DNA from: Escherichia phage vB_EcoM_ULIM3
Reading direction: 5' to 3' (one strand)
Sequence record: OQ850289
Length of the DNA stretch: 64,000 bases
The notes under the pieces are model-generated. The model ran no database searches, was not told where the DNA came from, and worked only from the letters and a program-made list of their open reading frames with translations. Position 1 is the stretch's first letter. Each line of letters begins with the position of its first letter. Position numbers and translations under genes: made by a program. Shown here piece by piece: positions 1 to 58,110 of the stretch.

Positions 1-34
1 AAAAAAAAAAAAAAGGCTCCCGAAGGAGCCTATG
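1..34 (-). terminator. intrinsic terminator (minus strand) 3' of endolysin
   Basis: A14 on plus strand then ggctcc-cgaa-ggagcc; on minus strand a hairpin followed by a U-tract. Confidence 0.7.
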
Positions 35-40
35 AAGATA

Positions 41-505
41 TTACTTTGGATATACACTGTCAAGATAAATGTTAGCTTCCATTCTACGTCTGTTTTTCAG
101 GCCGTTTGAAGTGACCTTCTCACCTTTGACTGTAATCTTGTTCCACCACTGCATAGCTTCTGCACAACCTACCTTATTACCATCATTGTGGCGCTTGATA
201 AATGTAGAGTCCTGCATAGCTGTGATGCCAATGTTGTATGTTTCACTTACAAGTGCATCAAACTCGTTCTGAGAAGTTGGAACCTTGATGGCTTTGTTCA
301 CTGCTGCAACGAACTTTTCAACATCTGCGAGAAGATACTGTTCAGCTTGTTCAGCGGTAATCTTCATACCCATCTTAACAGGTTTGCCAGCAATACGGAT
401 TGTCCCATACCCAATTGTGGGGATTCCAGCAGAATCTTCGTAAGCCTCCAGCTTGAGACCTTCAAAGAACTTAATAGCTTCTAAACCTTTTCTTGAGAGT
501 TGCAT
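41..505 (-). CDS. endolysin, T4-lysozyme-like (GH24) muramidase
   Basis: 154 aa; N-terminal EG..L.AY.D..GIPTIGYG signature of T4-type lysozymes; terminator hairpin immediately 3'. Confidence 0.85.
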   Translation of the reverse strand: MQLSRKGLEAIKFFEGLKLEAYEDSAGIPTIGYGTIRIAGKPVKMGMKITAEQAEQYLLADVEKFVAAVNKAIKVPTSQNEFDALVSETYNIGITAMQDSTFIKRHNDGNKVGCAEAMQWWNKITVKGEKVTSNGLKNRRRMEANIYLDSVYPK

Positions 506-1641
506 TATGCCCCTCCTGCTGGGTTAACTGTAACTGTTGCTGCATTAGATGTTACAGAGCCACCTGCACCAGTCACTACGCAAGTGTAGCTTCCTGTATC
601 AGTAGTGGTTGCACCTTCTTTGGTGTAAGTTGCAGTTGTTGCGTCTGGGATGTCTTCCTCACCCTTCTTCCACTGATAACCTGTTGCACCTGTTGCTACA
701 ACGTTGAGTGTCAATGTCTCACCTTCGGTGATTTCCTGATTGGTTGGTTGTTGAGTGATTACCGGAAGAGCATTAACAGTAACTGTCGCTGCATTAGAAG
801 TAACTGTTGTACCACCTGCACCAGTAACTACACAGGTATATGAACCAGCATCAGCAGGGGCTGCTTTAGCTTTCGTGTAAGTTGCACCAGTTGCACTAGG
901 GATGTTCACATTGTCTTTCTTCCATTGGTAACCTGTTGCACCTGTTGCAGCCACTTCCAAGTTGATATTTCCACCCTCATTGATGGTCTGACTAGAAGGT
1001 TGCTGTGTAATCACAGGTAGTGCATTAACAGTAACTGTTGCCGCGTCTGAAGTAACACTTGTCCCAGCCTCTCCAGATACAACACAAGTATATGAACCAG
1101 CATCAGAAGGTACTACAGACTGCTTTGTGTAGGTTGCAGATGTGGCGCTAGTGATATCCTCACCATCTTTTTTCCATTGATATCCAGTGGCATTAGTTGC
1201 AATAACGCTTAGGTTAAGTGTACCACCTTCATTTACTGTTTGATTGGTTGGTTGCTGAGTGATTGCTGGTGGCTTGATAGCATCCTTCAACTTAGCATTC
1301 AACATTGAGAATGGTTTAACTCTTGCCAGCCATTCACAATAAACTGTATCAACGTCTTTACCATTGATAATTGCATATTGTAAGTCCATGAAGAAGTCAG
1401 AAGTTCTCATTTGAGCACCAACGCTGTAAAGCAACTCATCACTAAATGGGACTTTGTAGTCTGGTTTGTAGTCAAACTTCTCAACTTCTGCGATATCAGC
1501 TTCAGGCCAATATGAGCTATAGGTGAGTGGTAAAATAGCCTCTTGATATGTTCTAAAATCATATCTCTTACCAGCCTTTACATTTGCAACGAAGCCCTTC
1601 ACAAACTCTTTGAAGTCTGGGTAAGTCTTTGCTTTAATCAT
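505..1641 (-). CDS. Ig-like repeat protein (N-terminal domain plus three tandem ~87-aa Ig-like repeats)
   Basis: three repeats each containing GYQWKKD...SYTCVV (I-set/Big-like); ATGA start/stop overlap with upstream gene. Confidence 0.6.
   Translation of the reverse strand: MIKAKTYPDFKEFVKGFVANVKAGKRYDFRTYQEAILPLTYSSYWPEADIAEVEKFDYKPDYKVPFSDELLYSVGAQMRTSDFFMDLQYAIINGKDVDTVYCEWLARVKPFSMLNAKLKDAIKPPAITQQPTNQTVNEGGTLNLSVIATNATGYQWKKDGEDITSATSATYTKQSVVPSDAGSYTCVVSGEAGTSVTSDAATVTVNALPVITQQPSSQTINEGGNINLEVAATGATGYQWKKDNVNIPSATGATYTKAKAAPADAGSYTCVVTGAGGTTVTSNAATVTVNALPVITQQPTNQEITEGETLTLNVVATGATGYQWKKGEEDIPDATTATYTKEGATTTDTGSYTCVVTGAGGSVTSNAATVTVNPAGGA
508..1312 (-). repeat. three tandem ~260-bp imperfect repeats encoding Ig-like domains
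   Basis: repeated peptide blocks ITQQP..Q.(I/V)NEGG..NL.V.ATGATGYQWKKD...ATYTK....DAGSYTCVV.G.GT.VTS.AATVTVN. Confidence 0.6.
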
Positions 1642-2009
1642 TTCTTTTTAGCCTCTAAATGTGCGTTTAGTCTAAAATAACCTTTGTGATGCGGAGATAC
1701 ATCACCAACAACAATGCCTTTAACCTTATAACCTTTACCAATTACATACTGGATATCCATAAGGAATCTTCCAAGTCCAACAATATGGAACATTGGATAT
1801 AATAGGTTCTCAGAATCTGGAATATTGATTTCAGGTTTGTAGGTGCGTTGTTCGATTGTTGGTGTAATATCTTCTTCAGGCCATTTACTGAGTCTCCATG
1901 TCAAAGGTGTTGGGATAACATCATTAAGGTTGTACCTTTCACCATTTCGCACGGAATTGATATAGGATTGTAGGAAGCAATAAAAGTCTTTTGCACTCTT
2001 AGCTTTCAT
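1638..2009 (-). CDS. hypothetical protein, paralogous to N-terminal domain of 505-1641
   Basis: 123 aa; shares W-PE-DI...YKP...LLY...MD-QY-I-GK pattern with the first ~110 aa of the adjacent Ig-repeat protein. Confidence 0.5.
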   Translation of the reverse strand: MKAKSAKDFYCFLQSYINSVRNGERYNLNDVIPTPLTWRLSKWPEEDITPTIEQRTYKPEINIPDSENLLYPMFHIVGLGRFLMDIQYVIGKGYKVKGIVVGDVSPHHKGYFRLNAHLEAKKK

Positions 2010-2056
2010 TAAATATCCTTATAAATAGTTAAAGGGGCATCAGCCCCTATTCACAC

Positions 2057-2647
2057 TTAAGCTTTGGTCTTAAGTAGGTTCTTAAGTTTTTTAAGATTCA
2101 TACTCTCATCAAACTTAAAACCAAATCCATTGACATAATCAATGAACTCGGATTTCTTACTGAGTGACAATGCGTAACTCATATCAAAGTTCTTACTTGT
2201 TTCTGCGTCTGGACTAGAGTTCACATCAAATGAAATTTCTGTAGGCTCTTGCTTACTTTTTCTCATATTATCAACCAACAAACATGTATAGTTTGCTGGA
2301 TAGAAATTTACACTACCATCAACGTAGCTGTACTTATTATTATGGATAAGGTTTGAAAATACCTTAAGGAATGTTTCTGAGTCGTGGCAAACAAGTTTGA
2401 ATTGGCTGCTCTCTCCAAGCGCAACTAATGAGTACGGACTTTCACTATCAAAGTCATAATTTGGATTCGATGCCGTTACTGTTACACGCATCAAATTATT
2501 AGCAATAGTCTTCTGTTTAAAAGAATTTTGAACATAGTGAAGACCTCTATCACACTGATTGACTAGCTCTTTAAGTAGGTCATTTGCATATGGCGAATTA
2601 ATTGATACAGAGCCATCACTATTGTAATTAAAACTTACTGTTAACAT
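2057..2647 (-). CDS. hypothetical protein
   Basis: 196-aa ORF in minus-strand operon; no motif recognised. Confidence 0.45.
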   Translation of the reverse strand: MLTVSFNYNSDGSVSINSPYANDLLKELVNQCDRGLHYVQNSFKQKTIANNLMRVTVTASNPNYDFDSESPYSLVALGESSQFKLVCHDSETFLKVFSNLIHNNKYSYVDGSVNFYPANYTCLLVDNMRKSKQEPTEISFDVNSSPDAETSKNFDMSYALSLSKKSEFIDYVNGFGFKFDESMNLKKLKNLLKTKA

Positions 2648-2874
2648 TTTTCAGTTCTCCTGCGATTTATAATTTTGCTGCAATAGAGAAACGAAGTAAA
2701 CTCACTGGAAGAAACCATTAAGTGTTGTTCACTAGATTGAGCCATTGCCCTGAAATACATTCCAGTCAAAGCATCATAGTGACTATTCTTTCCAATTGAG
2801 GTTATATAGCCATGACTCTTTGCAGTTTGATATAAATCTATAATATCTGCGATTTCTAATTGGGAACTACACAT
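2641..2874 (-). CDS. hypothetical protein
   Basis: 77-aa ORF, overlaps stop of next gene. Confidence 0.35.
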   Translation of the reverse strand: MCSSQLEIADIIDLYQTAKSHGYITSIGKNSHYDALTGMYFRAMAQSSEQHLMVSSSEFTSFLYCSKIINRRRTEKC

Positions 2875-3018
2875 AGATAATCCTCTTGTCTTCTGTAATT
2901 TTGAAAGAACAGGTACAGACCAATTTCAGAGGACGAATAGTAGATTAATTCTACCCTTTTTGATTCCTTACAGTGATTGGTATTCTTACCTTTCTTCGGT
3001 TTATTTGATTTTCTCATT
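2856..3018 (-). CDS. small basic protein (start moved to internal ATG with GGAG RBS)
   Basis: ATG at 3018 preceded by AAAGGAG 6 nt upstream; MRKSNKPKKGK... lysine-rich N-terminus. Confidence 0.3.
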
Positions 3019-3115
3019 AAGTCTCCTTTGTAGAACAAGGCAGACCTACAGCTTTAAGTAAGATGGTACAGTAATCCATACAACAAGTCAAGAACTATTG
3101 CAAGTTAAAAAAGTT

Positions 3116-3157
3116 GTTGACAAAGTACTTGACAAGGTGTAGGCTTATAAATACTTA
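3116..3157 (+). promoter_or_regulatory. tandem TTGACA promoter-like block at divergent junction
   Basis: gttgacaaagtacttgacaaggtgt (3116-3140), near-identical to 44996-45020; TAnnnT -10 candidates downstream. Confidence 0.5.
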
Positions 3158-3266
3158 GAAGATAACTTAAAAGGTTCCTCTAAAAAGGCTATTTAAACAG
3201 ATATCTTTCTGGATATCTATCTTTTATCTTAAAAGCCTTTTAAGAGGTCTTATAAGAGGCATACCA

Positions 3267-3719: not shown

Positions 3720-5135
3720 ATGAGCGAATTATTTAAACATGCGCACCTTCATGCAGGTCGAACTGAAAATGGTGCTGTAAACCATACTTCATCAATGTCT
3801 GCTCTTGTAGACTTTTACAAAGCTGCTGGTTCAAGCCGTAGCAACGTAGAAATCTTACCAGACCTGTTCTGCAAAGCTTTGCGTGAGGATGTTGATGTCG
3901 CAGTTCGTATTTTGCTTCATATGCGAGATGTACGAGAAGGTATGGGTGAGCGTAAAGCCTTCAGAACTGTTTTGCTTCAAGCGATTGAAGACAAAGTTTT
4001 AGAGCCTACGCAGGTTCTTCGCATTATGGATAAGATTGCAGAACTTGGTCGTTTTGATGACTTCAAAATCTTCGTAGGTACTCGTTTCGAGACAGATGCC
4101 TTCAAACATTTAGAAGCAGCATTACTAGACCCTGCAACAGCAGGTTTGGCGGCTAAGTGGTTACCACGAGTCAAACCACGTCATAAGCAGTTTGTAAAAC
4201 GTTTCTGCAAGTTTGCCAACTTAAGTGAGAAAGAGTACCGCACACTATTGTCTGCACTATCTGATACAGTTGAGCAAAAAATCTCTGCTAATGAGTTTGG
4301 TAAGATTGACTACAGTAAGATTCCTTCACTTGCTGCTGCACGTTACCAAAAACTGTTTAACCGTAAAGATGGAGAACGCTACAAAGCTTACATCGAGTCA
4401 TTATCAAAGGGTGAGGCTAAGATTAATGCTGGTGCTGTTTACCCATACGATGTGATTAAATCTGTTAAGTATGGTAATGCAGATGTTGCTAATGAGCAGT
4501 GGAAAGCACTACCAAACTGGATGGCAGAGGGTGAGAACATTTTGTGTATGACTGATGTCTCAAGCTCAATGTCTTGGGTGAATTTCGGTTCAATCACTGC
4601 TCTTGATATTGGTGTATCTCTTGCACTGTATGTAGCAGAACGCAATACTGGTTGTTTTAAAAATGAGTTAATGGTTTATTCAACAAACCCTCACTTCATC
4701 GAACTGAGTGGTGATTTACGAAACCGTCATCGTCAGGTAATGCGTTATACTGAATATGGTTCAACTAACTTACAAGCAGCTTTTGACCGTATTCTTGAGA
4801 CAGGTAAAAGAAACAACTTGACTCAGAAAGATATGCCAAGTAAGCTTATCATCTTCTCCGATATGGAGTTCAATCAGGTTGATGGAGCTAACGGTCGTAC
4901 AAACTTTGAAGCAATTCAGAGTAAGTACAAAAAAGCTGGATATGAGATGCCACAACTGGTATTCTGGTACTTAGCAAACCGTAATGGTACTTGCGAAGTA
5001 TCTGTTAAGGATAACGGTGTAGCAATGGTATCAGGGTTCTCTCCAGCCACTTTAAAAGCTCTGCTTGGTGGTGAGAAGTTTGACCCAATCAGCGTAATGC
5101 TCAAAGCAGTAATGGTTGACCGTTATATCTGGTAA
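3720..5135 (+). CDS. vWA-domain protein with MIDAS motif; helical N-terminal domain (Ro60/TROVE-like architecture, hypothesis)
   Basis: 471 aa; perfect DxSxS MIDAS (D-V-S-S-S, nt 4549-4563) in C-terminal half; N-terminal RDVREGMGER motif; own promoter at 3651. Confidence 0.65.
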   Translation: MSELFKHAHLHAGRTENGAVNHTSSMSALVDFYKAAGSSRSNVEILPDLFCKALREDVDVAVRILLHMRDVREGMGERKAFRTVLLQAIEDKVLEPTQVLRIMDKIAELGRFDDFKIFVGTRFETDAFKHLEAALLDPATAGLAAKWLPRVKPRHKQFVKRFCKFANLSEKEYRTLLSALSDTVEQKISANEFGKIDYSKIPSLAAARYQKLFNRKDGERYKAYIESLSKGEAKINAGAVYPYDVIKSVKYGNADVANEQWKALPNWMAEGENILCMTDVSSSMSWVNFGSITALDIGVSLALYVAERNTGCFKNELMVYSTNPHFIELSGDLRNRHRQVMRYTEYGSTNLQAAFDRILETGKRNNLTQKDMPSKLIIFSDMEFNQVDGANGRTNFEAIQSKYKKAGYEMPQLVFWYLANRNGTCEVSVKDNGVAMVSGFSPATLKALLGGEKFDPISVMLKAVMVDRYIW

Positions 5136-5300: not shown

Positions 5301-5377
5301 CTCTGTTTAGCTCAGCTTGGTAGAGCGTTCCGTTTGGGGCGGTAAGGCCGGAGGTTCAAGTCCTCCAACAGAGACCA
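5301..5377 (+). tRNA. tRNA-Pro (TGG)
   Basis: acceptor ctctgtt/aacagag (C1-G72, disc A, CCA encoded); anticodon loop tttgggg; T-arm ggagg-ttcaagt-cctcc; one mismatch in anticodon stem. Confidence 0.6.
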
Positions 5378-5384
5378 AATTAAT

Positions 5385-5462
5385 GTTCCAGTAGACAAAA
5401 TGGTAAAGTCACCACTCTTTCAAAGTGGATATTTGAGGGTTCAAATCCCTTCTGGAACGCCA
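5385..5462 (+). tRNA. tRNA-Glu (TTC)
   Basis: acceptor gttccag/ctggaac; anticodon stem ccact/agtgg, loop ctttcaa; T-loop ttcaaat; CCA encoded. Confidence 0.7.
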
Positions 5463-5467
5463 GTTTT

Positions 5468-5544
5468 GACAGAAGACCAATTGCAGCAAACTTAATCTTA
5501 TTCATCTGAAGGTAAATCGGACAAAGAAGAGATTTGGTCTGGTC
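5468..5544 (+). ncRNA. stem-closed element A (CAGAAGACC...GGTCTGG family)
   Basis: 7-bp helix 5474-5480/5534-5540 (AGACCAA:TTGGTCT) closing a 53-nt AT-rich interior; fills the tRNA-sized spacer between two tRNAs. Confidence 0.4.
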
Positions 5545-5553
5545 ATTAAGAAT

Positions 5554-5630
5554 TGCGGGTATAGAGAAAGGGCGTCTCACATGTCTCATTAGCATGGTAT
5601 CGGCAGGTTCGACTCCTGCACCCGCCTCCA
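5554..5630 (+). tRNA. tRNA with CAT anticodon (Met or Ile2)
   Basis: anticodon stem catgt/gcatg, loop ctcatta; T-arm gcagg-ttcgact-cctgc; acceptor 6/7 paired; CCA encoded. Confidence 0.55.
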
Positions 5631-5634
5631 AATT

Positions 5635-5704
5635 TACAGAAGACCGTTTACAGCAAAATTGAATGAAATTTTTAGCGGAAAAAATTGAAAGATACGGTCT
5701 GGTA
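5635..5704 (+). ncRNA. stem-closed element B (CAGAAGACC...GGTCTGG family)
   Basis: 7-bp helix 5641-5647/5694-5700 (AGACCGT:ACGGTCT); first 28 nt identical to element D. Confidence 0.4.
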
Positions 5705-5715
5705 ATACTAAACAT

Positions 5716-5792
5716 GGTTAGGAAGCACATAAGGTATGTGCGGTCGCCTGTTAAGCGAATGGCACAGGGTTCGAATCCCTGACTAACCGCCA
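5716..5792 (+). tRNA. tRNA-Asn (GTT)
   Basis: acceptor ggttagg/actaacc; anticodon loop ctgttaa; T-arm caggg-ttcgaat-ccctg; CCA encoded. Confidence 0.65.
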
Positions 5793-5801
5793 AATTTAAA
5801 T

Positions 5802-5889
5802 GTGTCGTTATCCCGTAGATGGTAGCGGTGGGGACTGTAAATCCCTTGTCATTGAGACTCGGTAGGTTCGACTCCTACACGGCACACCA
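5802..5889 (+). tRNA. tRNA-Tyr (GTA), long variable arm
   Basis: acceptor gtgtcgt/acggcac; anticodon stem gggga/tccct, loop ctgtaaa; ~15-nt variable arm; T-arm gtagg-ttcgact-cctac. Confidence 0.7.
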
Positions 5890-5894
5890 ATAAA

Positions 5895-5971
5895 GGCTAT
5901 GTAGTTTAACTGGAGAAAATACTCCCCTGTCACGGGAGATGATGTGAGTTCAAGTCTCATCGTAGCCGCCA
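5895..5971 (+). tRNA. tRNA-Asp (GTC)
   Basis: acceptor ggctatg/cgtagcc; anticodon stem ctccc/gggag, loop ctgtcac; CCA encoded. Confidence 0.7.
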
Positions 5972-6056
5972 AATTATAATAAGTATTTCAAAATGATGTT
6001 TTGAGAGGGCTATTTAGCCCCTCCCTTAAAGGGTTCTTACGAGTATCCTTTAAAGG

Positions 6057-6134
6057 AGCAGAAGACCAAATTCAGCAAGTTACTTAAAATTTCAAGCCAA
6101 TTTAATTTTGAAAAATTTAAAACTTGGTCTGGCT
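6057..6134 (+). ncRNA. stem-closed element C (CAGAAGACC...GGTCTGG family)
   Basis: 7-bp helix 6063-6069/6124-6130 (AGACCAA:TTGGTCT); interior AT-rich hairpin. Confidence 0.4.
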
Positions 6135-6143
6135 CAACAAATT

Positions 6144-6278
6144 TACAGAAGACCGTTTACAGCAAAACTTAAACAATCTATTTCTCGGTAAAGAAAAGGC
6201 GAAGGTTCGATTCCTTCACTCGGCAGATGTCGAGTTGGTGTAATGGCAGCACTTAAGATGATAAACAACGGTCTGGTA
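6144..6278 (+). ncRNA. stem-closed element D with internal tRNA-like module
   Basis: 8-bp helix 6150-6157/6267-6274 (AGACCGTT:AACGGTCT); interior has T-arm-like gaagg-ttcgatt-ccttc (6201-6217) and D-loop-like agttggtgtaatgg (6231-6246) but no full cloverleaf. Confidence 0.4.
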
Positions 6279-6421
6279 ATTATCTTTGTAGATAAGTTAT
6301 TAAGCTTACCTGTGAGTATGCGACCACAAAGGGTGAAAGGGTAAATTCTAGATTTAAACCCAAAAAGGCACATCGCTACAGACCTTAAGCAAGTCTGGGT
6401 AGCTTATCTACAAAGATAATT
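6278..6421 (+). repeat. 19-bp perfect inverted repeat (6278-6296 / 6403-6421) enclosing 106 nt
   Basis: aattatctttgtagataag and its exact reverse complement; lies between element D and tRNA-Lys. Confidence 0.75.
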
Positions 6422-6425
6422 TAAT

Positions 6426-6501
6426 GGAAGTGTAGCAGAATGGTGATGCGGCAGACTTTTAATCTGACAGGCGATGGGTTCGAATCCCTCCACTTCTACC
6501 A
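6426..6501 (+). tRNA. tRNA-Lys (TTT)
   Basis: acceptor ggaagtg/cacttct; anticodon loop cttttaa; T-loop ttcgaat (T-stem only 3 bp); CCA encoded. Confidence 0.6.
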
Positions 6502-6505
6502 AAAT

Positions 6506-6582
6506 GGTTCAGTCGCAGATAAGGTAATGCAAGGGTCTCATAAGCCCTATGAATGTGGGTTCGATTCCCATCTGAACCTCCA
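6506..6582 (+). tRNA. tRNA-Met (CAT)
   Basis: acceptor ggttcag/ctgaacc; anticodon stem agggt/gccct, loop ctcataa; CCA encoded. Confidence 0.7.
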
Positions 6583-6584
6583 AT

Positions 6585-21230: not shown

Positions 21231-21242
21231 TAAATCCTATAA

Positions 21243-21276
21243 GGGGGAGACTTTAAAAGGTCTTCCCCTTTTTTGT
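21243..21276 (+). terminator. intrinsic terminator after tail tube gene
   Basis: gggggagac...gtcttcccc stem followed by TTTTTTG. Confidence 0.7.
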
Positions 21277-21303
21277 TTCTTTTAAAAGTATTAAGGAATC
21301 ACA

Positions 21304-21702
21304 ATGAAAACAGAATCTAAAGTAATTAATGGTAAGAAAGTAAATATCGTTCTGCTTGGGGCAAGAGATGGGATTAAGATGTCTATGAAGCTGGGTAAAA
21401 TTGTTGTTCCAACATTTGCACAGATGCTATCAAGTCTGACTGATAAAGATAAGAAAGAAGCTCCAATGGTTCCATTTAAAGACCTTGTTGAAGCTTGTTT
21501 TGACAGAATTGAAGAAATTAACCTTGAAGAAATGGCTACCCTGTTATTTCAAGGGGCAACTGTTGATGACTTCCCACTCAATATTGATACATACTTCCAA
21601 GCAAACTACGGTGAGTTTATTGATTACTTAGCATTTGCGCTGGAGGCAAACTTCGGAAGTTTTTTCGAAGCAAGCATTTTCAAAAGCCTAACTTCTCAGT
21701 AA
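21304..21702 (+). CDS. tail assembly chaperone
   Basis: 132 aa directly upstream of tape measure; slippery T_TTT_TTC at 21660-21666. Confidence 0.55.
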   Translation: MKTESKVINGKKVNIVLLGARDGIKMSMKLGKIVVPTFAQMLSSLTDKDKKEAPMVPFKDLVEACFDRIEEINLEEMATLLFQGATVDDFPLNIDTYFQANYGEFIDYLAFALEANFGSFFEASIFKSLTSQ

Positions 21703-31135: not shown

Positions 31136-31142
31136 TTTCTTT

Positions 31143-31166
31143 ACAGGGGCTTTATAGCCCCTTTTA
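31143..31166 (+). terminator. intrinsic terminator
   Basis: ggggc-tttata-gcccc followed by TTTT. Confidence 0.6.
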
Positions 31167-31181
31167 AGAGGAAAATTTATA

Positions 31182-34218: not shown

Positions 34219-35118
34219 TTACTTGCCTACTGACAGAGGTGCTTCAATCTTCCCTGCATGTTGGTAGTTGTTAATACCACCAATAAAGTCACTTGCAGTA
34301 AGGTGTTTTAGGTCACTTAGTGTGTTAAGCTGCACACCAATCTCAAAAGTAGGTGCATGGAACTCTTTATTGTTCATCAGTTCATAAACCTGCTTCATAT
34401 GATTCTGATAAATCTGAGTGTCTCCAAAGACACCTATCAAGTATCGTGGAGTGTATCCAGTCATCTTACAAAGAACTTCTAAGATGAAGCCATAAGACGC
34501 AATATTAAACGGAAGCCCTAAAAAGGTGTCTACAGAACGTTGATACCATTGCAAATCCACTTCACCTTCGTTAGTGATATAAATCTGAAACAGTACATGA
34601 CAAGGTGCTAAAGCCATCGAATTAGCTGCAATATCTGCTGCATTCCAAGCATTAACAAGCATGTAGCGGTCTGTGATATCACCTTTCATCTTCGTTACTA
34701 AGGTTTCTAACTGGTCTACAACACAACCATTATGACCTTCAAAGTTTCTCCACTGAACCCCGTAGATTCTCCCACCTGCATCTTCTAACCAGTCTTGTTC
34801 AGAAGAATAGTTAGAGCTTAACCAGCGTTTAAAATCATCTGACCAGATAGTCCAGCGTTCCCCATCATTTTCACCCCAAGTACGGTAACGGAGTTCACCA
34901 AGTTTATTCTCACCGTTCAGGAACCATAAAGCTTCCCCAATAACTTGCCGTGTAAACACCTGTTTAGATGTTAAGAGTGGGAAACCAGTTCTCATATCAA
35001 AACGAAATTGTGGTGGAGCAAATGCAGAGATAACGTCTCCAGTTCGTGTAGTACGCAGTTCACCAACGGATAGAACATGGTTCAGAATATTTTTGTAACT
35101 TGAATCTGCTTGTGACAT
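34219..35118 (-). CDS. thyA: thymidylate synthase (ThyA family)
   Basis: ALAPCH catalytic-Cys motif, RSVDTFLGLPFNIASY, GDTQIYQNH; collinear with the E. coli ThyA sequence as I recall it. Confidence 0.85.
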   Translation of the reverse strand: MSQADSSYKNILNHVLSVGELRTTRTGDVISAFAPPQFRFDMRTGFPLLTSKQVFTRQVIGEALWFLNGENKLGELRYRTWGENDGERWTIWSDDFKRWLSSNYSSEQDWLEDAGGRIYGVQWRNFEGHNGCVVDQLETLVTKMKGDITDRYMLVNAWNAADIAANSMALAPCHVLFQIYITNEGEVDLQWYQRSVDTFLGLPFNIASYGFILEVLCKMTGYTPRYLIGVFGDTQIYQNHMKQVYELMNNKEFHAPTFEIGVQLNTLSDLKHLTASDFIGGINNYQHAGKIEAPLSVGK

Positions 35119-35119
35119 A

Positions 35120-35665
35120 TCAAAAGTGTCCTTTTACTTGTGGAACATAAATTTCAAAGGTTGCTTTACCATCATCTGAGGGTCTTGACTGCACCTTTGC
35201 AAATACACGGCTATCATACAATTTATCGAAGAAGTTTTCAAAAGGTAAATACACAGTGGCCTCTTCAGTGACTTTATGGAAAACTGTATGGAAAACCACA
35301 CCAGCATACGGCAAAGCATCGACAAGAACACCTGCACCACCAATTACAAAGACATCTTCATCAATAGAGCTGTCAAGATACTTCAAAAATGCTCCAAAGG
35401 ATTCTTTACTAGCCTTAGCATACATTACATCGTCTTTGTCAAAGTCTATACCCAAATATGGAACAGAGTTCGTTAAGACGAGGTTTGTACGTTCTGGTAA
35501 TGGTTTGCTACCCAGAGTCTTAAAAGTTTCATTACCCATGACTACTAAGTTATCTTTAGTGAGTCTCTTAAACTCTTGCATATCCTGTTTATGTCGAGGC
35601 CACGGCATACCAGTTGGAGTACCAAACTCCCCATTTTCACCACTTGCAAAGATTAATTTAATCAT
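35120..35665 (-). CDS. folA: dihydrofolate reductase
   Basis: MIKLIFA...GMPWP N-terminal motif; 181 aa; adjacent to thyA. Confidence 0.8.
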   Translation of the reverse strand: MIKLIFASGENGEFGTPTGMPWPRHKQDMQEFKRLTKDNLVVMGNETFKTLGSKPLPERTNLVLTNSVPYLGIDFDKDDVMYAKASKESFGAFLKYLDSSIDEDVFVIGGAGVLVDALPYAGVVFHTVFHKVTEEATVYLPFENFFDKLYDSRVFAKVQSRPSDDGKATFEIYVPQVKGHF

Positions 35666-35922
35666 TTTGTAAATCCTTTCTTAATGAACCAGTTGATAAC
35701 ACTCTTCACAGCTTTATTGCTATGGTAGATTAAGTGTGGTGTAGGTTGGTATGAACCATAAGCCCAGAAAGCAATGATTTCATTACATCCTGTACACCTT
35801 GTACTCTCTTCAGCAATATGACCGTTGACTATTTCACTTACCTCGCCTTGTAAGTCTGTACACCCACAATGTGGACATCGGATAGGTGTTCCATCAGACT
35901 CATAGCAGTGTTCAATTTTCAT
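35662..35922 (-). CDS. Cys-rich zinc-ribbon protein
   Basis: CPHCGC...CTGC paired CxxC motifs, 86 aa. Confidence 0.45.
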   Translation of the reverse strand: MKIEHCYESDGTPIRCPHCGCTDLQGEVSEIVNGHIAEESTRCTGCNEIIAFWAYGSYQPTPHLIYHSNKAVKSVINWFIKKGFTK

Positions 35923-36438
35923 CTATTTAACCTCAAAAACTGGCTCAAGAACCAATATAAAGTCTACACAGTCATCTTCTTCATCCAGAATACCATCAAA
36001 GTTCTTAGGAACGAAGTCGAAGAGGCTCATAACAAAACAGTCAGAAGTGACCTTAATAGTTCCTCCCATGTTCTCTACAGTTAACACTGTACGACTTTCT
36101 TTTACCTCCCTCAGAAGATTACCCACAAAGTCATCTAAGAAATACTTCATCAGTGACTTGAAACCTTTAGGGTAATCTGTACCAGAGTATGTTTCAATCT
36201 GAGGAACAAGTTTAACATTTATACTCGTCTTTGTTAAGAACGTGCTAGAGAACATACTATCAGGTAACTTACAAACAGTCTTTCCAGTACCTTCATGCTC
36301 AATCTCAACAAAACCAGCTTCATCGCCACATGTAACTATTTTAAAAGATGCTTCATTCTCATACTGTGAAGCCATAAACTTTTTAAGCATCTCTTTAAGG
36401 AAATCTGCATGAGCATCTTGTAAGTAGATATCAATCAT
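35923..36438 (-). CDS. hypothetical protein
   Basis: start moved to internal ATG 36438 (AGGTG RBS) to remove overlap with upstream gene. Confidence 0.4.
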   Translation of the reverse strand: MIDIYLQDAHADFLKEMLKKFMASQYENEASFKIVTCGDEAGFVEIEHEGTGKTVCKLPDSMFSSTFLTKTSINVKLVPQIETYSGTDYPKGFKSLMKYFLDDFVGNLLREVKESRTVLTVENMGGTIKVTSDCFVMSLFDFVPKNFDGILDEEDDCVDFILVLEPVFEVK

Positions 36439-36451
36439 AGTTAAACACCTA

Positions 36452-36811
36452 TTATGGGAACAGACACTTAATGTCATCGTTTTTGAAAACGAAGCTTGTG
36501 TAGTTGTGACCATCAACATCCAACCAAACAGCCTGAACATCTACACCATCAAGATTCTGGTAAAGCTCTTTGATGAAGTGGTCTTTCACAATCTGACTGC
36601 TAGTTGTTTCCAGCTTAATGTTCGAGATTGCTGAACCTACAGCCATATAGCCCATGACACGTTTCTTCTCAGTATGCTTAATCTTACCATCTTTGTAAGC
36701 CATAATGAGATTGGAGAGAATCTTCACACCATAATACTTTTCAAGGTGAGTTGGTACGCCATAAAAGCCTAATGCGAAGTTTTCAGAGTGGATAATGTTT
36801 TCACGTTTCAT
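36452..36811 (-). CDS. hypothetical protein
   Basis: 119-aa ORF. Confidence 0.4.
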   Translation of the reverse strand: MKRENIIHSENFALGFYGVPTHLEKYYGVKILSNLIMAYKDGKIKHTEKKRVMGYMAVGSAISNIKLETTSSQIVKDHFIKELYQNLDGVDVQAVWLDVDGHNYTSFVFKNDDIKCLFP

Positions 36812-36812
36812 A

Positions 36813-37142
36813 TTAATCTGCCAACCTTAAATTGAAATTAACACCAAATTTTTCACATACTTCCAACATATACTCAAGGGAGACGTTACCAGTGAGATGG
36901 ATTATGTTGGATACACGAGCCTGAGAGATACCACAAATTTTAGCAACTTGCTCTTGAGAAAGGCCTCTGGATTTAATCTCTCTCTTAAAACGATGTGCAA
37001 CGAAGTCTCTCATTTCGTCTACATCCATTGGACAAATATAACTCTCCATTTCAGCCTCTCTATCAGCCTCCCAATCATCTTGTGGGGCATAAGGGTCAAA
37101 AACCTCATTCATCTTTCTTCTTCCGTTTGCGTGAAGTGTCAA
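36813..37142 (-). CDS. XRE-family helix-turn-helix transcriptional regulator
   Basis: LSQEQVAKICGISQARVSNI helix-turn-helix signature. Confidence 0.6.
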   Translation of the reverse strand: MTLHANGRRKMNEVFDPYAPQDDWEADREAEMESYICPMDVDEMRDFVAHRFKREIKSRGLSQEQVAKICGISQARVSNIIHLTGNVSLEYMLEVCEKFGVNFNLRLAD

Positions 37143-37317
37143 TCAATGAATCTATGTTTGTAGCCCTAACCTTTTCACGTTCATCATTAAGATAATCATC
37201 AAGAGCCTTTTCAATCTGTGAATCATCTTGACAGATAACTGTAAAGACTGTAAATCCGTCTGTATCGTCAATTATCTTACCATAACCGCTTCTGGGATGT
37301 AACTTTTTAAGAGCCAT
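37105..37317 (-). CDS. hypothetical protein
   Basis: 70-aa ORF. Confidence 0.35.
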   Translation of the reverse strand: MALKKLHPRSGYGKIIDDTDGFTVFTVICQDDSQIEKALDDYLNDEREKVRATNIDSLIDTSRKRKKKDE

Positions 37318-37318
37318 A

Positions 37319-37702
37319 TCAAATACCTGTGCAGCTTCTGTTTTCTAAGAAATACTCCACACCATACATAGCTTTTTGCATTAAATCTTCTTTAAACTGG
37401 ATACGATGATTGAGCATAGCCTGTACATCAATATCATCAGGGTGCTTCTCTTTAATGTTTGCAGATTGCAGGAAGTACTCTGCAAGAACGCGATACTGGT
37501 AGTCAGTCACCTTATCAGTCATCTCTGTCAAAGACTCTTCAGAGATGGGTTTAAGTAACTCACCATTAGCTAGAGCAACACCTTTTACAATCTGGCAAGT
37601 GTCTTCTGGAACACCTGATAAGTCCACATTTGGAAGTTCTGTTGCATTGACTGGTAAATTCATTGCCATAACCATTGCAGCAGCTAATAAAATCTTTTTC
37701 AT
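37319..37702 (-). CDS. secreted/periplasmic protein (signal peptide)
   Basis: MKKILLAAAMVMAMNLPVNA signal-peptide-like N-terminus; own promoter in repeat region R1. Confidence 0.5.
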   Translation of the reverse strand: MKKILLAAAMVMAMNLPVNATELPNVDLSGVPEDTCQIVKGVALANGELLKPISEESLTEMTDKVTDYQYRVLAEYFLQSANIKEKHPDDIDVQAMLNHRIQFKEDLMQKAMYGVEYFLENRSCTGI

Positions 37703-37746
37703 AATGACCTCAAAGTTATATTAAATTTTGTATTACATTGAGTATA

Positions 37747-37775
37747 AAAATAAGCTATAACACCTGACTTGTCAA
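37747..37775 (-). promoter_or_regulatory. sigma70-type promoter (minus strand) for 37319-37702
   Basis: minus-strand TTGACA (37775-37770), 17-nt spacer, TATTTT (37752-37747); flanked by 9-bp inverted repeat taagctata/tatagctta. Confidence 0.5.
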
Positions 37776-38140
37776 CAGATTTTATAGCTTATTTGGCAGA
37801 TTTTTTATAAGGCTACTGCCATCCTTCCATACCAAACCTCACCTGACCTCGCCTAACCCTACCTTACTCCACCATACAGCACCTTATTAAAACACCCTGT
37901 TTAAAGACCTTTTAAAAAGGTAAGTCTCATTTTAATGTAGCTGAGACTAACTACCCATACCTCACCCTACCAGACCCTACCGAACATCACTTAAAAACCC
38001 TCTTAGAAGACTCTTAAGTGATGTAATCGAATTTTAATGTAGCTCCGATTAACTACCCATACCTCACCTCACCCAACCATACCATGCCTTGCCAGACCGC
38101 ACCTTACCTCATTAAAAGACCCTCTTAAAAGACCTTTTAA

Positions 38141-38166
38141 AAAGGAGCCTCCGAAGAGGCTACCTA
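38141..38166 (-). terminator. intrinsic terminator (minus strand) after 38173-38613
   Basis: minus-strand ggtagcctc-ttcg-gaggct(a)cc hairpin followed by TTTTT. Confidence 0.7.
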
Positions 38167-38172
38167 GTCAAC

Positions 38173-38613
38173 TTAGAAAGGTTTTCTACGTTGCTTGTTA
38201 ATGTTAGCTTTCATAGCAGCTAAATGGTTTTGCTGTTCAATCAGTCGTGAACGTTCTTGATGACTAAGCGCCATAGTGTTCACATTCTCAATTGCTTGAG
38301 TGGCTTGCTTTAAAGCTCGACCAATCTTACCAGACATTTTGCGTTTTGCAATAGTTGCTTGATGCTTAGGTTCAACCACACGATAACCAACACCCATTGA
38401 AGCAACCAGATAAATCTTCTCTTCTTTAAGAAGCTTTTCAATAAACTTCTCAAGTCGGTTTAGACGTGTAAGTGCATAAGCCTTCATTTCATCTTCGTAC
38501 TTAACAATGTCACCTTGATAAGTTGGCTTCACAATACCTAAGAAGGTGTCCATCTCGGAATGTGATACAGTGTCGCCGTAACTAAACTTTGCTGCTAATG
38601 CTTTTGTATTCAT
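38173..38613 (-). CDS. hypothetical protein (cassette gene 2)
   Basis: 146-aa ORF, basic C-terminus. Confidence 0.5.
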   Translation of the reverse strand: MNTKALAAKFSYGDTVSHSEMDTFLGIVKPTYQGDIVKYEDEMKAYALTRLNRLEKFIEKLLKEEKIYLVASMGVGYRVVEPKHQATIAKRKMSGKIGRALKQATQAIENVNTMALSHQERSRLIEQQNHLAAMKANINKQRRKPF

Positions 38614-38615
38614 AA

Positions 38616-39638
<1,023 letters not shown>

Positions 39639-40739
39639 TTACTCATAATCCCTAATAACTAACCCAACAGGGAACTGTAAAGACCCCTTACGAGTCATCT
39701 TCTGGAACTGAACCGTTAAAGGCTTCCCGATAAACTCTTCAGGATGCTCAGCCAGATACTGCTTTTTCTCATGAGTGGTTTTCCATGAGACATCTACAAA
39801 GACGTTAGGAAGAGTCTCTACAACGAACTTACCATGACCACGTTTATCAGTCTTTACACCAGTTACTTTAAACTCTTCAGTGTGCATCTTCTTGTGCTTA
39901 ATCAAGAAGTATGAACGGTGACAACACTCATAGAAGGAGTCTTCAGAGATTGAACGGTACATTGCACCTTCAAACTTAGCTTCAACCCACTTATCATGAG
40001 CTTCATCAAATTCTTCCCAAGAATTTACACGGATAGTCTGCACAGGAACAACTCTACAGGTATCCCCAAGCTCAACAATAGGTGAGTTATCAATAACTTC
40101 ACGACGCTCAGGCCAAGATTTTGAATTGTCACAGATATCATACCAGTAGAATTTAAGAAGGTGACGGTCTGGATTGTCAGCATTCTTAATCATAGACACA
40201 ATATCTTCTAAGTCCCAACCATGAGCATAAATCTCTCCATCAAAGTCTTCAACTTGCGGATGTAATTTAAGCAACAAAAGTAAGTCTGGTATTAGTTCTG
40301 CTGGAACGTTGTAAACAGTATTCTCACGAGAATAAGCTGTGAAACCGACTGAATCAGCATCTCTTGAAATTCTACAACGTACACCATCCAGTTTCGGTTG
40401 AGCATCAGCAGGGAACTTCAGATACTTTGCATGACTAACCTTTGCAGCATCATGAGCAAGCTGTACACCTACCTTCTCAGTATTCTGTGCAGACTCTTTT
40501 GTGTAAGCATACCCTTTACGGTCAACTTGCTTTTTATACTTAGCAGCAACTTCAAAGAGAGCTTGCTGTTCAGCATTACGCTCATTCTTTTTACCGATGT
40601 TTTTAGGTTCTGCTGTATACTCTTCAAACATCATCTTGCCATTTTCTTTGCCATAGGTTGTAATAACCTTGTCACCTACAGCAGTACATGACCAGATGTT
40701 AAAAGAGCCATCTTTATTTTGTTTGTACAGTATTGTCAT
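39639..40739 (-). CDS. ATP-dependent DNA ligase
   Basis: KLDGVRC motif I (adenylation lysine); start set at ATG 40739 with AGGAA RBS. Confidence 0.8.
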   Translation of the reverse strand: MTILYKQNKDGSFNIWSCTAVGDKVITTYGKENGKMMFEEYTAEPKNIGKKNERNAEQQALFEVAAKYKKQVDRKGYAYTKESAQNTEKVGVQLAHDAAKVSHAKYLKFPADAQPKLDGVRCRISRDADSVGFTAYSRENTVYNVPAELIPDLLLLLKLHPQVEDFDGEIYAHGWDLEDIVSMIKNADNPDRHLLKFYWYDICDNSKSWPERREVIDNSPIVELGDTCRVVPVQTIRVNSWEEFDEAHDKWVEAKFEGAMYRSISEDSFYECCHRSYFLIKHKKMHTEEFKVTGVKTDKRGHGKFVVETLPNVFVDVSWKTTHEKKQYLAEHPEEFIGKPLTVQFQKMTRKGSLQFPVGLVIRDYE

Positions 40740-40740
40740 T

Positions 40741-40932
40741 TTATTCCTCTGAGTGATACCAAGTATTGCAAGCATTACATGCGTAAAGCTCTAAATCATT
40801 TTTATCTGGTTTATGAAAACAGTTTGCTCCGCAGTGGCAACGAAACGGTTTTCCACCAACTGTCAGGATGAAGGATTGAACCTTTCCATCAGGAGTTCGT
40901 ACAGCATTTTTATGCTTATCTTCTTTGTTCAT
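40741..40932 (-). CDS. zinc-finger protein
   Basis: CHCGANC...CNAC Cys4 pattern, 63 aa. Confidence 0.45.
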   Translation of the reverse strand: MNKEDKHKNAVRTPDGKVQSFILTVGGKPFRCHCGANCFHKPDKNDLELYACNACNTWYHSEE

Positions 40933-41135
40933 TTTCTCTTACCACCAATCTCTACGTCAATCACTTGAACATCACCAGCAACATCGAACTTATGAATGAT
41001 GCTTTCCACAGTGTAAGTCCAACCCTCGATTCGAACCAACTCACCTTCTCGTGGAACTATTGGATTACGTTGAGCTACGGTTGTAGTGGAGTGAACAACA
41101 TCATAACAGTAGATATAGTTTACTAGGACTTCCAT
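40929..41135 (-). CDS. hypothetical protein
   Basis: start moved to ATG 41135 with GGTGAGGTG RBS. Confidence 0.4.
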   Translation of the reverse strand: MEVLVNYIYCYDVVHSTTTVAQRNPIVPREGELVRIEGWTYTVESIIHKFDVAGDVQVIDVEIGGKRK

Positions 41136-41145
41136 CTTGAGCACC

Positions 41146-41403
41146 TCACCCAATAACAGTAGTGTGTGATTGACCATTTTTGCCATAGCTATAAGATGTT
41201 GTTGTTTGAGAGTTTGGACACCTGACAACAACAATGTCTCTGCTTATGGCATCACCATGTAACTTATAGACTCTGCAATCTTGCATCTCTGGTGGGAGGC
41301 TATAAGAAGCGTTTTTGTCCTCGTAAGAGGGATTACAGCCAGATAGAAAAATTACTCCAAGTGCAACCATTGCTTTCACACAACTCTCAACCTTATTGTT
41401 CAC
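41146..41403 (-). CDS. lipoprotein (putative)
   Basis: signal peptide with LSGC lipobox; GTG start. Confidence 0.45.
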   Translation of the reverse strand: MNNKVESCVKAMVALGVIFLSGCNPSYEDKNASYSLPPEMQDCRVYKLHGDAISRDIVVVRCPNSQTTTSYSYGKNGQSHTTVIG

Positions 41404-41535
41404 GATAGTCTACCTCTCTGTATGTTTTTAAATAGTGAGTGATGAGTTCTGGTAATTCACTACGTTTAACGTTTGAACGAAGAAGTGTCCAGTCAAAACC
41501 TTTACCAACCCTTCCCCAGAGACTGTACATTTTCT

Positions 41536-41769
41536 TCATAGCAACTCCAGAATATCAATACGTTCACCTTTGAGTACTCCAGTACGGTCTTTTGCAATCT
41601 TACCTTCAACAATAAGAATGTGTGCAGACCTTAAAGTGTCACTGTTAAAGGCTTTTACGAACTTGCTAGGCATCACTACAATACACATCTCCTGAATCAA
41701 CTCTGGAGTATAGCAATTGTCGTGAAGTTGCTGAATAACGTCTGCAAGTGTCATTTTTGATGTCTCCAA
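41536..41769 (-). CDS. hypothetical protein, paralogue of 41957-42175
   Basis: shared C-terminal GKIAKD.TG.LKGER..I..LL motif. Confidence 0.5.
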   Translation of the reverse strand: METSKMTLADVIQQLHDNCYTPELIQEMCIVVMPSKFVKAFNSDTLRSAHILIVEGKIAKDRTGVLKGERIDILELL

Positions 41770-41960
41770 TACTCAATATCAATAAGTTCTTGTGCAATGC
41801 TTTTCAGATTACCTTTCAAGAAAACCTTCTCAGAACCTGAAAGAGATGAATTGTCAATTAACCTGTTCATTCTCTCAAACAACTTCTGCTTACGATTCTT
41901 GATAGTTTCCTTTGAAGCACCTTTCATCATCGCTGCATGGGTTCTTCCACGGTGGCTCAT
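41751..41960 (-). CDS. hypothetical basic protein
   Basis: 69-aa ORF between the two paralogues. Confidence 0.4.
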   Translation of the reverse strand: MSHRGRTHAAMMKGASKETIKNRKQKLFERMNRLIDNSSLSGSEKVFLKGNLKSIAQELIDIEYWRHQK

Positions 41961-42175
41961 AGTAAACTCTCAATATTTACACGCTCACCTTTCAAGTATC
42001 CTGTCTTATCTTTTGCGATTTTGCCTCCAGCGATAAAGATATCTACTCTACGTAGAACTTCAGGGTTTACCTTCAAATTCCTACAGCTACTGCAAAGAAC
42101 AATAAACAGCCCTTCAATCTCTTTTTGAGAGTAACCAGCACATTGCAACTGGACTTCAATTTCTGAAAGTGTCAT
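41957..42175 (-). CDS. hypothetical protein, paralogue of 41536-41769
   Basis: shared C-terminal GKIAKD.TG.LKGER motif. Confidence 0.5.
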   Translation of the reverse strand: MTLSEIEVQLQCAGYSQKEIEGLFIVLCSSCRNLKVNPEVLRRVDIFIAGGKIAKDKTGYLKGERVNIESLL

Positions 42176-42236
42176 GTGACCTCCTATACAAGATACAGTA
42201 TAAGGTACTCTTCCATGAGCACCTTGTCAATACTAA

Positions 42237-44936: not shown

Positions 44937-44995
44937 TTTTACTCCCTCTAAAATCATTAACCTCATACATTACTGCAAAAAATTATAAAAAGCAA

Positions 44996-45037
44996 GTTGA
45001 CAATGTACTTGACAAGGTGTTAATCTTTGCGAAGTGG
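44996..45037 (+). promoter_or_regulatory. tandem TTGACA promoter-like block at divergent junction
   Basis: gttgacaatgtacttgacaaggtgt (44996-45020); upstream of first plus-strand replication-block gene. Confidence 0.5.
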
Positions 45038-45193
45038 GTTTTTACTTAAAAGGTTACTTAACAGTTTAACTATACAGATACTTTAAAACTCTTAAAAGAT
45101 TATTTAATAGCTTTTAAAAAGCTTTAAAGTATAACGTATAGAATACGTTAAGATAAAAGATTAAAACTTAATAGTTACTTAAAAGAGGCTTAC

Positions 45194-46430: not shown

Positions 46431-46447
46431 GTCTTTATAAACCTTAC

Positions 46448-46472
46448 AAGCCTCCTTAGTTGGGGGCTTTTT
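46448..46472 (+). terminator. intrinsic terminator
   Basis: aagcctcc-ttagtt-gggggctt 8-bp stem followed by TTT. Confidence 0.6.
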
Positions 46473-46491
46473 AGTAATTAAGGGAGATAGA

Positions 46492-53975: not shown

Positions 53976-53978
53976 ACT

Positions 53979-54005
53979 AGGGAGCCTCTTCGGAGGCTCT
54001 TTTCA
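53979..54005 (+). terminator. intrinsic terminator
   Basis: ggagcctc-ttcg-gaggctc hairpin followed by TTTTC. Confidence 0.75.
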
Positions 54006-54021
54006 TCTGTAGGATTCAAAA

Positions 54022-58080: not shown

Positions 58081-58085
58081 AATGA

Positions 58086-58110
58086 AAGGGTCTCTTCGGA
58101 GACCTTTTTA
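58086..58110 (+). terminator. intrinsic terminator
   Basis: gggtctc-ttcg-gagacc hairpin followed by TTTTTA. Confidence 0.75.

Follow-up and report, generated by a model that had tools for sequence, protein, structure and literature searches.

Doubled TTGACA hexamers at three predicted promoters of Felix O1-type phages

Paired hexamers and their conservation

We investigated a 64,000-nt stretch of the genome of Escherichia phage vB_EcoM_ULIM3 (sequence record OQ850289; the whole stretch is called the window here), focusing on two directly repeated TTGACA hexamers that stand in each of the two intergenic regions where gene blocks on opposite strands diverge (junction 1 and junction 2). The upstream copy (hexamer 1) has promoter-like anatomy together with a −10 element, and the downstream copy (hexamer 2) lies in the spacer between the two and is just as invariant. 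The pair is restricted to three promoters and to one clade of phages. This doubled −35 architecture is a modest but real regulatory oddity, well above chance. The element would most simply be filed as a sigma-70 promoter with a conserved second −35 hexamer embedded in its spacer, the function of hexamer 2 being predicted.

Megablast identified the window as a Felixounavirus genome (Felix O1, wV8, VpaE1, and relatives), and around 42–47 kb it shares 100% identity with Escherichia phage VpaE1_ev035 (LR699048.1). As the host is Escherichia coli or Salmonella, TTGACA can be read as the host sigma-70 −35 consensus. Minus-strand genes occupy 1–3038 and 34219–44936, and plus-strand genes occupy 3267–34181 and 45194 to the window end. 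At junction 1, the last minus-strand genes end near 3017–3038 and the plus-strand gene begins at 3267. At junction 2, the flanking gene starts are at 44936 (DNA polymerase, minus strand) and 45194 (plus strand).

A sequence-only reading of the window had drawn attention to a 25-mer (GTTGACAAnGTACTTGACAAGGTGT) shared by the two junctions. It is indeed present at both with one base difference, being exact at 3116–3140 and carrying one mismatch at 44996–45020. These are the two matches found at up to three mismatches, against 0 in 100 shuffles, and the gene map confirms that both copies are intergenic and lie at divergent strand switches. The 25-nt block itself, however, is not the conserved unit. 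Only its two 6-bp hexamers are fixed, 12 bp apart, and the filler differs between genera. Nor is the pair tied to strand-switch regions, as a third copy lies inside a co-directional gene block. This third pair, outside the window at LR699048.1 13312–13330, reads aaaaaagtgTTGACAataccccTTGACAttggTAACTT in a 13-bp register and has an extended −10 (TGgTAACTT) 17 bp after hexamer 1. It adjoins open reading frame (ORF) 22 of Felix O1 on its upstream side.

We then compared orthologous junctions gathered from IMG/VR contigs and GenBank, covering Felixounavirus, Suspvirus (SUSP1/2), and Mooglevirus (Moogle, Michonne, Sf13). At junction 1, neither hexamer varies among 13 distinct sequences of the three genera, while the 6-nt filler reads aagtac, aaggac, aagcac (Felix O1), ttcctc, agggga, agcctc, or aatgac. 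The hexamers are likewise invariant in 21 distinct sequences of junction 2, where four of the six filler bases vary, and in 17 distinct Felixounavirus sequences of the third site, where the filler is again variable. Over the three sites, none of the 36 hexamer columns is variable versus 14 of the 19 columns between the hexamers (Fisher p = 2.7e-9). Because the hexamers are invariant and the filler is not, we describe the block as two 6-bp elements at a set spacing, with the sequence between them free to change. That the two junctions have nearly identical filler (aagtac versus atgtac) is a feature seen within Felixounavirus. At the third site, the filler stays C-rich because it is paired with a downstream GAGGGGG.

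A genome-wide search, which the sequence-only reading had proposed, found three exact TTGACA pairs at 11–14 bp offset where 0.21 are expected. The whole genome of Citrobacter phage Moogle also has exactly three, orthologous to the same sites and in registers of 12, 12, and 13 bp. This census, with Moogle included, is the strongest evidence for what appears to be a functional architecture specific to three promoters. A global alignment of the two intergenic regions scored 158.5, compared with 116.5 ± 7.4 for shuffles, with the block and the ribosome-binding region accounting for most of the score. A palindromic operator inside the block (AAGTACTT) was rejected, as it occurs only in some Felixounavirus genomes and is variable elsewhere.

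Promoter anatomy, related copies, and leaders

The contexts upstream of hexamer 1 at the two junctions (ttaaaaaagttgTTGACA and ataaaaagcaagTTGACA) exactly match the ordinary promoter context of the phage. We compiled this promoter class from the window, LR699048.1, and Moogle. It consists of an A-tract, a G and about three more nucleotides, TTGACA, 16–18 bp, and TAnnnT, and it has at least 12 other examples. Class members in the window are at 3651, 5154, 5245, 6675, 49832, and 60277 on the plus strand and at 37770, 39626, and 42225 on the minus strand. Only three of about 15 consensus promoters have paired hexamers. Hexamer 1 matches the sigma-70 −35 consensus at all six positions at both junctions and is invariant in relatives.

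The predicted −10 elements vary in an orderly way. At junction 1, they read TAGGCT, TAGCCT, TAGTGT, or TAAGTT, with the T, the A, and the last T fixed and the inner bases free. At junction 2, they read TA(A/G)TCT (TAATCT, TAGTCT) with a conserved TGn. This pattern of fixed and free bases fits a working −10 (predicted starts are given in Table 1). The sequence-only reading had suggested −35 elements or a regulator site controlling early transcription. Promoter-type elements for rightward transcription from both junctions are supported, with the tandem hexamers under strong selection. Like the ordinary sigma-70 promoters of virulent coliphages, these have hexamer 1, an A-tract, a 17–18 bp spacer, and a TAnnnT −10, as well as TGn at junction 2 and the third site. 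Unlike them, they have a second perfect −35, equally conserved, within the spacer, and an unusually poor −10 (three of six positions).

The outgroup Ounavirinae examined have a single hexamer at both junctions. Examples are Pectobacterium phages Arno162 (TTGACA-N17-TAGGCT) and Wc4-1 (TTGACA-N18-TGaTACCCT), the Erwinia phages (TTGACA-N17-TACATT), and phiEa21-4 (TTGACA-N16-TAGAAT). For junction 2, the outgroups examined were four Erwinia and Pectobacterium phages (L081, L135, L136, L137), which have TACATT or TAGGCT at N17. Therefore, hexamer 1 and the −10 represent the ancestral promoter, and hexamer 2 was added in the clade of Felixounavirus, Suspvirus, and Mooglevirus. As a separate observation, the junction-1 promoter of Erwinia phage phiEa21-4 (L138, about 540–590) continues past its −10 as TTGACA-N16-TAGAAT-taatac-TTGACA-g-AAGAAT. 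A −35-like hexamer, one base, and a −10-like hexamer at the start site make up the layout of the lambda PR' pause and Q-loading region.

Other promoter types were considered and set aside. A leftward promoter built on the reverse complement of hexamer 1 (TTGTCA-N18-AATAGT) is not conserved in other genera and is absent at junction 2. A T4-like late promoter (TATAAATA) at 3146–3153 is not conserved either, as other genera read TAATAAAAC. Inspection by eye against consensus sequences gave no convincing fit to sigma-32, -24, -28, or -54 promoters or to sites for PhoB, PhoP, FNR, CRP, IHF, or DnaA.

One half of the pair was described previously. The Felix O1 genome paper lists "P41 TTGACA(N15)TATAGG 21515-21541" (PMC3185647), which is hexamer 1 of junction 1 with a different choice of −10. 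That paper states that there is no other homologous sequence in the 40–41 or 96–97 regions, and it does not report the second hexamer (PMC3185647). Nothing in the literature searched describes the doubled hexamer, notes that it recurs at junction 2 and ahead of ORF22, or reports its conservation, and the annotated records of wV8, VpaE1_ev035, ULIM8, and Moogle mark no promoter or regulator site at the block.

The 12-mer core of the block (CTTGACAAGGTG) has six matches at up to one mismatch versus 0.34 expected. One of them had been assigned to 60277–60289 and to a terminator stem. Its true position is 60276–60287, and it does abut and overlap a terminator hairpin (60282–60317). We treat this copy not as the same element but as a separate, single-hexamer promoter nested in the terminator. 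It has TTGACAAGGTG in common with the blocks, and its AGGTG is terminator stem. The −35 abuts the left terminator arm and the −10 lies within the hairpin loop. The stem shows compensatory changes in other genera (loci L105 and L110), and the loop string TTGATAGGCTT is invariant wherever the element is present, with six loci (L098–L102, L106) having unrelated sequence. Transcripts begun at this promoter would lack the left arm and therefore should escape termination. A similar overlap of hairpin and promoter spacer was seen at LR699048.1 2305 (TTGACA-aggggctttgaagcccct-TAGAAT). The fourth copy of TTGACAAGGTG, on the minus strand at 42220–42230 just downstream of the polymerase gene, belongs to another probable single-hexamer promoter (Table 1).

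Each of the three paired promoters heads a long and highly conserved untranslated leader, of about 115 nt at junction 1, 160 nt at junction 2, and 150 nt at the third site. The leaders start with CT(T)AAAAGG at 11–14 nt after the predicted start, followed about 14 nt on by a second copy (CTAAAAAGG, CTTAACAG, or CTTAAAAG) and then by (A/T)ACAGATA or ATAGATA. Altogether, they hold four to five direct copies of an 8-mer (3165–3260 and 45044–45190 in the window; 13360–13420 in LR699048.1). CTTAAAAG occurs 33 times in the 88-kb genome versus about 5.4 expected, mostly in intergenic regions and co-oriented with genes. The repeat sequence is lineage-specific, with CTTAAAAG in the Felix clade and TTAACAG in both junction leaders of Pectobacterium relatives (L135, L139). 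This suggests co-evolution with a trans-acting factor that may bind the RNA or the DNA. In Moogle, the repeat copies at both ends of the junction-2 leader have changed together, to CTTAATAG. Beyond the window, about 1.6 kb at a convergent junction (LR699048.1 14676–16322) lacks annotated genes and is dense with repeats of the CTTAAAAG, CTTATAAAG, and CTATAAAG types.

A 12-mer (ACTTAAAAGGTT) that had been noted at both junctions is the first of these leader repeats and lies outside the promoter proper. Its presence at both is correct, but the coordinates first given for it were off by 1–3 nt (Table 1 lists the true ones). On its own, ACTTAAAAGGTT is marginal, with four matches at up to one mismatch versus 0.88 expected and two of 100 shuffles reaching four.

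The leaders are also structured. That of junction 1 folds at −28.4 kcal/mol (z = −2.6) with one compensatory pair in the consensus fold, and its sequence (3153–3256) is 91–93% identical between genera versus 78–82% for adjacent coding sequence. The other two leaders fold better than shuffles as well (z = −2.3 and −2.0). The start predicted for junction 2 falls on the 5' base of the leader stem GUGGGUUUUU, and the first bases of the leader stems AGUGGGUUU and AGGGGGUUU are where transcription is predicted to begin at junction 2 and the third site. Conserved palindromes are found in the leaders of junction 1 (Table 1) and junction 2 (AGCTTTTAAAAAGCT). Rfam covariance models run against the leaders returned only chance-level matches, far below gathering scores.

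Table 1. Coordinates of the features discussed, in window positions.
Feature	Position	Strand	Remarks
Leftward divergent promoter, junction 1	3063–3091	−	TTGACT-N17-TACCAT; scanner match; invariant in alignment
A-tract (UP-element-like), junction 1	3107–3112	+	Upstream of hexamer 1; aaaaaGnnn-TTGACA context as at other phage promoters
Hexamer 1 TTGACA, predicted −35, junction 1	3117–3122	+	17 bp upstream of TAGGCT
Hexamer 2 TTGACA, junction-1 spacer	3129–3134	+	About −23 to −18; invariant
Predicted −10 TAGGCT, junction 1	3140–3145	+	3/6 consensus; predicted start about 3152–3153
AATACT, possible second −10	3150–3155	+	15 bp after hexamer 2; junction 1 only
ACTTAAAAGGTT, first leader repeat and 5' arm of leader hairpin	3165–3176	+	Junction 1
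Junction-1 leader hairpin	3166–3256	+	Interrupted, about 33 pairs; palindrome CTTAAAAG-C-CTTTTAAG near 3229–3245
Cro/CI-type helix-turn-helix regulator gene	36813–37139	−	Pfam HTH_3, E = 5.9e-10; phrog_1373; only candidate trans-factor identified
TTGACAAGGTG-N12-TACCTT, probable single-hexamer internal promoter	42202–42230	−	Between polymerase stop codon and next leftward gene; missed by scanner
A-tract, junction 2	44987–44991	+	Upstream of hexamer 1; aaaaagcaag invariant
Hexamer 1 TTGACA, predicted −35, junction 2	44997–45002	+	Invariant
Hexamer 2 TTGACA, junction-2 spacer	45009–45014	+	About −24 to −19
Extended −10 TGtTAATCT, junction 2	45018–45026	+	Hexamer 45021–45026, 18-bp spacer; predicted start about 45033–45034
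ACTTAAAAGGTT, first of five CTTAA(A/C/T)AG repeats	45044–45055	+	Junction-2 leader 45034–45193
Single-hexamer promoter TTGACA-N18-TGaTAGGCT	60277–60306	+	Nested in terminator after nrdD
Intrinsic terminator after nrdD	60282–60323	+	14-pair stem, then T-run; scanner match

What the second hexamer may do

Our preferred reading, which we hold tentatively and at slightly less than an even chance, is that the block is a host sigma-70 promoter core in which hexamer 2 serves as a second docking site for sigma region 4. Hexamer 1 would act as the −35 after a UP-like A-tract, with a weak TAnnnT −10 at 17 or 18 bp and starts near 3152 and 45033. Hexamer 2 would dock region 4 one promoter-escape step (12–13 bp) past the real −35, and polymerase that has just escaped with sigma still bound could be caught or held there. 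Alternatively, polymerase may dock at hexamer 2 directly and form a competing, non-productive complex unable to open the DNA. In both cases, the output of three promoters that have weak −10 elements and structured, repeat-bearing leaders would be tuned or gated.

We infer binding by region 4 because hexamer 2 is the exact −35 consensus, with only the six bases read by region 4 fixed and the flanks free, and docking because 12–13 bp is the distance that polymerase moves on leaving a promoter. Since both the register (12 versus 13 bp) and the distance to the −10 (4–6 bp) vary, loose docking fits better than a rigid dimeric regulator. Primary papers on −35-like pause elements are those of Perdue and Roberts (2010), Nickels et al. 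(2006), and Devi et al. (2010), the last reportedly a further case in which region 4 engages an additional −35-like hexamer once initiation is over.

The PR' promoters of the lambdoid phages lambda, 82, and 21 resemble the arrangement described here, as they have an extra −35-like hexamer for region 4 and head a very long operon with intrinsic terminators. In the Q-loading complex of lambda PR', region 4 engages a −35-like element again during early elongation (PMC9388147). At phage 82 PR', a region-4-dependent pause occurs at +14/+15 (PMC3326312), and at lambda PR', sigma is recaptured after 13 nt of RNA (PMC9191641). Recapture takes place about 13 bp past the promoter position, and hexamer 2 is 12–13 bp downstream of hexamer 1 at all three sites. 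RNA longer than about 15 nt displaces region 4 from the flap (PMC3326312); therefore, region 4 could still sit on the flap at 12–13 bp. However, the extra hexamer of lambda PR' is at −7 to −2 beside a pause element (sequence in PMC4604602), whereas the junction-1 hexamer 2 is at −23 to −18. Furthermore, the −10-like pause element is absent at junction 2 and the third site, and the phage analyzed here is virulent and not lambdoid.

Several points weigh against region 4 docking. The −10 elements match the consensus at only three of six positions, below the scanner threshold, and a consensus scanner misses the rightward promoters for this reason. The weak −10 does count against calling these promoters; it is also characteristic of their class. 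We found no start-site mapping or RNA sequencing study for any Felixounavirus in the literature searched. The initially transcribed regions of junction 2 and the third site contain no −10-like pause element. At junction 2, no conserved xAxxxT occurs before about +9 (the first in the window is at +16), and the third site has no conserved one; at junction 1, AATACT spans about −2 to +4. Any hold would consequently rest on region 4 alone, which is a weaker and less documented kind of pause. In addition, the hexamer-2 clade is also the clade of a Cro/CI-type helix-turn-helix (HTH) regulator, which is compatible with a trans-acting factor. Lastly, the three downstream genes do not share one timing by reverse transcription PCR in Felix O1, as ORF41, 42, and 97–99 peak at 25 min and ORF22 at 5 min.

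An extension of region 4 docking, which we consider a long shot, is that hexamer 2 and the leader hairpins form a promoter-proximal loading module that makes polymerase terminator-resistant. Region 4 would hold polymerase at hexamer 2, and a phage factor or the leader RNA would then act, as Q or HK022 put does. The operons contain hairpin and T-run terminators at 21231–21303, 31136–31181, 46431–46491, 53976–54021, 58081–58128, and 60282–60323, and further terminators are given in Table 2 of PMC3185647. No Q-family antiterminator was found among the approximately 14 proteins scanned with Pfam and PHROGs, and none is annotated in the four records. If true, the module would explain terminator read-through in operons tens of kilobases long in a virulent myovirus without its own polymerase or sigma factor.

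The main alternative, possible though in our view rather unlikely, is that the hexamer pair is a direct-repeat operator for a trans-acting protein that, covering −35 to −18, represses the three promoters or activates them from their weak −10 elements to time them. The likeliest such protein would be the Cro/CI-type HTH regulator. A tblastn search detected the gene in the 258 records of Felixounavirus, Suspvirus, and Mooglevirus with the junction-2 block and did not detect it in Erwinia and Pectobacterium relatives, but this co-occurrence is confounded by phylogeny and amounts to one clade. The site between the −35 and the −10 is a classical operator position, and in the Q21 binding element two protomers are known to occupy a tandem direct repeat (PMC9388147). 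However, inverted repeats are the usual targets of Cro/CI-type proteins, and no palindrome is conserved in the block. The restriction of the pair to so few of the consensus promoters would suit a dedicated regulator, as would the 25-min peak of ORF41, 42, and 97–99 despite a perfect −35. Nevertheless, the half-site is the host −35 consensus and would match every other TTGACA promoter in the phage, and this identity, together with registers of 12, 12, and 13 bp, favors sigma region 4. No other DNA-binding protein was found among the approximately 14 proteins scanned, and the link between the HTH regulator and the block is a candidate one.

The sites of lambda CII and P22 C1 (TTGC-N6-TTGC) likewise consist of two direct copies, separated by 6 bp, that straddle the −35 of phage promoters with a poor −10. 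They differ in that the register here is 12–13 rather than 10 bp, the repeat is a full −35, and the second repeat is downstream of the −35. No CII-like gene was identified among the proteins scanned. An operator of the OmpR/PhoB or CII type, with 10–11 bp repeats and a cognate gene, does not describe the block, given the registers observed and the Cro/CI-type HTH gene as the only one found.

Overlapping promoter pairs such as lambda pL1/pL2, gal P1/P2, and lac P1/P2 have mutually exclusive polymerase registers, each with its own −10 and start. The block is similar in that two polymerase registers would fall in one region, and the sequence-only reading had allowed for tandem −35 elements. We regard two overlapping promoters, each TTGACA being its own −35 and the starts lying 12 bp apart, as improbable. 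Junction 1 does offer AATACT (four of six positions) at 15 bp after hexamer 2, and other genera have AACACT at 16 bp, with the position-2 A and the position-6 T conserved. Junction 1 is, however, the only site with such a candidate. At 15–19 bp after hexamer 2, junction 2 has AAGTGGG and the third site GGGGGT, G-rich strings that are invariant and contain no xAxxxT. As junction 2 and the third site lack a second −10, the two-promoter explanation fails as a general one.

We give still less credence to the idea that the hexamer pairs and AT-rich repeat regions are replication-origin or other DNA-level elements, that is, iterons and an unwinding region. Junction 2 does lie between the DNA polymerase gene and the primase-helicase operon, and the AT-rich leaders with their four to five copies of a lineage-specific 8-mer would suit an origin. 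However, hexamer 1 fits the promoter context exactly, the repeats are co-oriented with genes and reach into ribosome-binding sites, and the third site is away from any replication gene. Finally, a recent duplication or gene conversion that left the blocks similar and hexamer 2 functionless is very improbable: the nearly identical Felixounavirus filler would fit it, but invariance of the hexamers in three genera despite filler divergence, with registers kept in Moogle, contradicts it.

Surrounding genes and significance

Downstream of junction 1 are a DUF5681 gene, a Ro60-like gene, and 26 plus-strand tRNA genes, followed by packaging and structural genes. Junction 2 is flanked by the leftward DNA polymerase gene and a rightward replication and nucleotide-metabolism operon. 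The first genes after the two junctions showed no paralogy on comparison. ARAGORN places all 26 tRNA genes at 5301–10245 on the plus strand, downstream of the junction-1 promoter; LR699048.1 has them on the other strand, apparently an annotation error. Extra consensus promoters are at 5154, 5245, and 6675. Directly upstream of the tRNA cluster, the second gene after junction 1 (3720–5135) encodes a Ro60-like "RNA-binding protein" (DUF2828/DUF7788, phrog_850). According to a Bas63 preprint, the homologue gp130 counters a host defense, and some of the "tRNAs" are proposed as possible Y RNAs. In the Erwinia relatives L081, L136, and L137, an inserted HNH homing-endonuclease gene separates the polymerase gene from junction 2.

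Phages of the Felix O1 type are widely used in Salmonella typing and biocontrol, and their transcription program is essentially unmapped. The Felix O1 genome paper left both transcription timing and terminator read-through unexplained (PMC3185647). A second conserved −35 box in exactly three promoters is a concrete, mutable handle on this question, and the three promoters could be candidates for regulated parts in phage engineering. Binding of a phage protein to hexamer 2 would identify the target of the only recognizable regulator of this clade. If region 4 docks there, hexamer 2 would provide a naturally occurring example, from beyond the lambdoid phages, in which a −35-like element controls early elongation or promoter occupancy.

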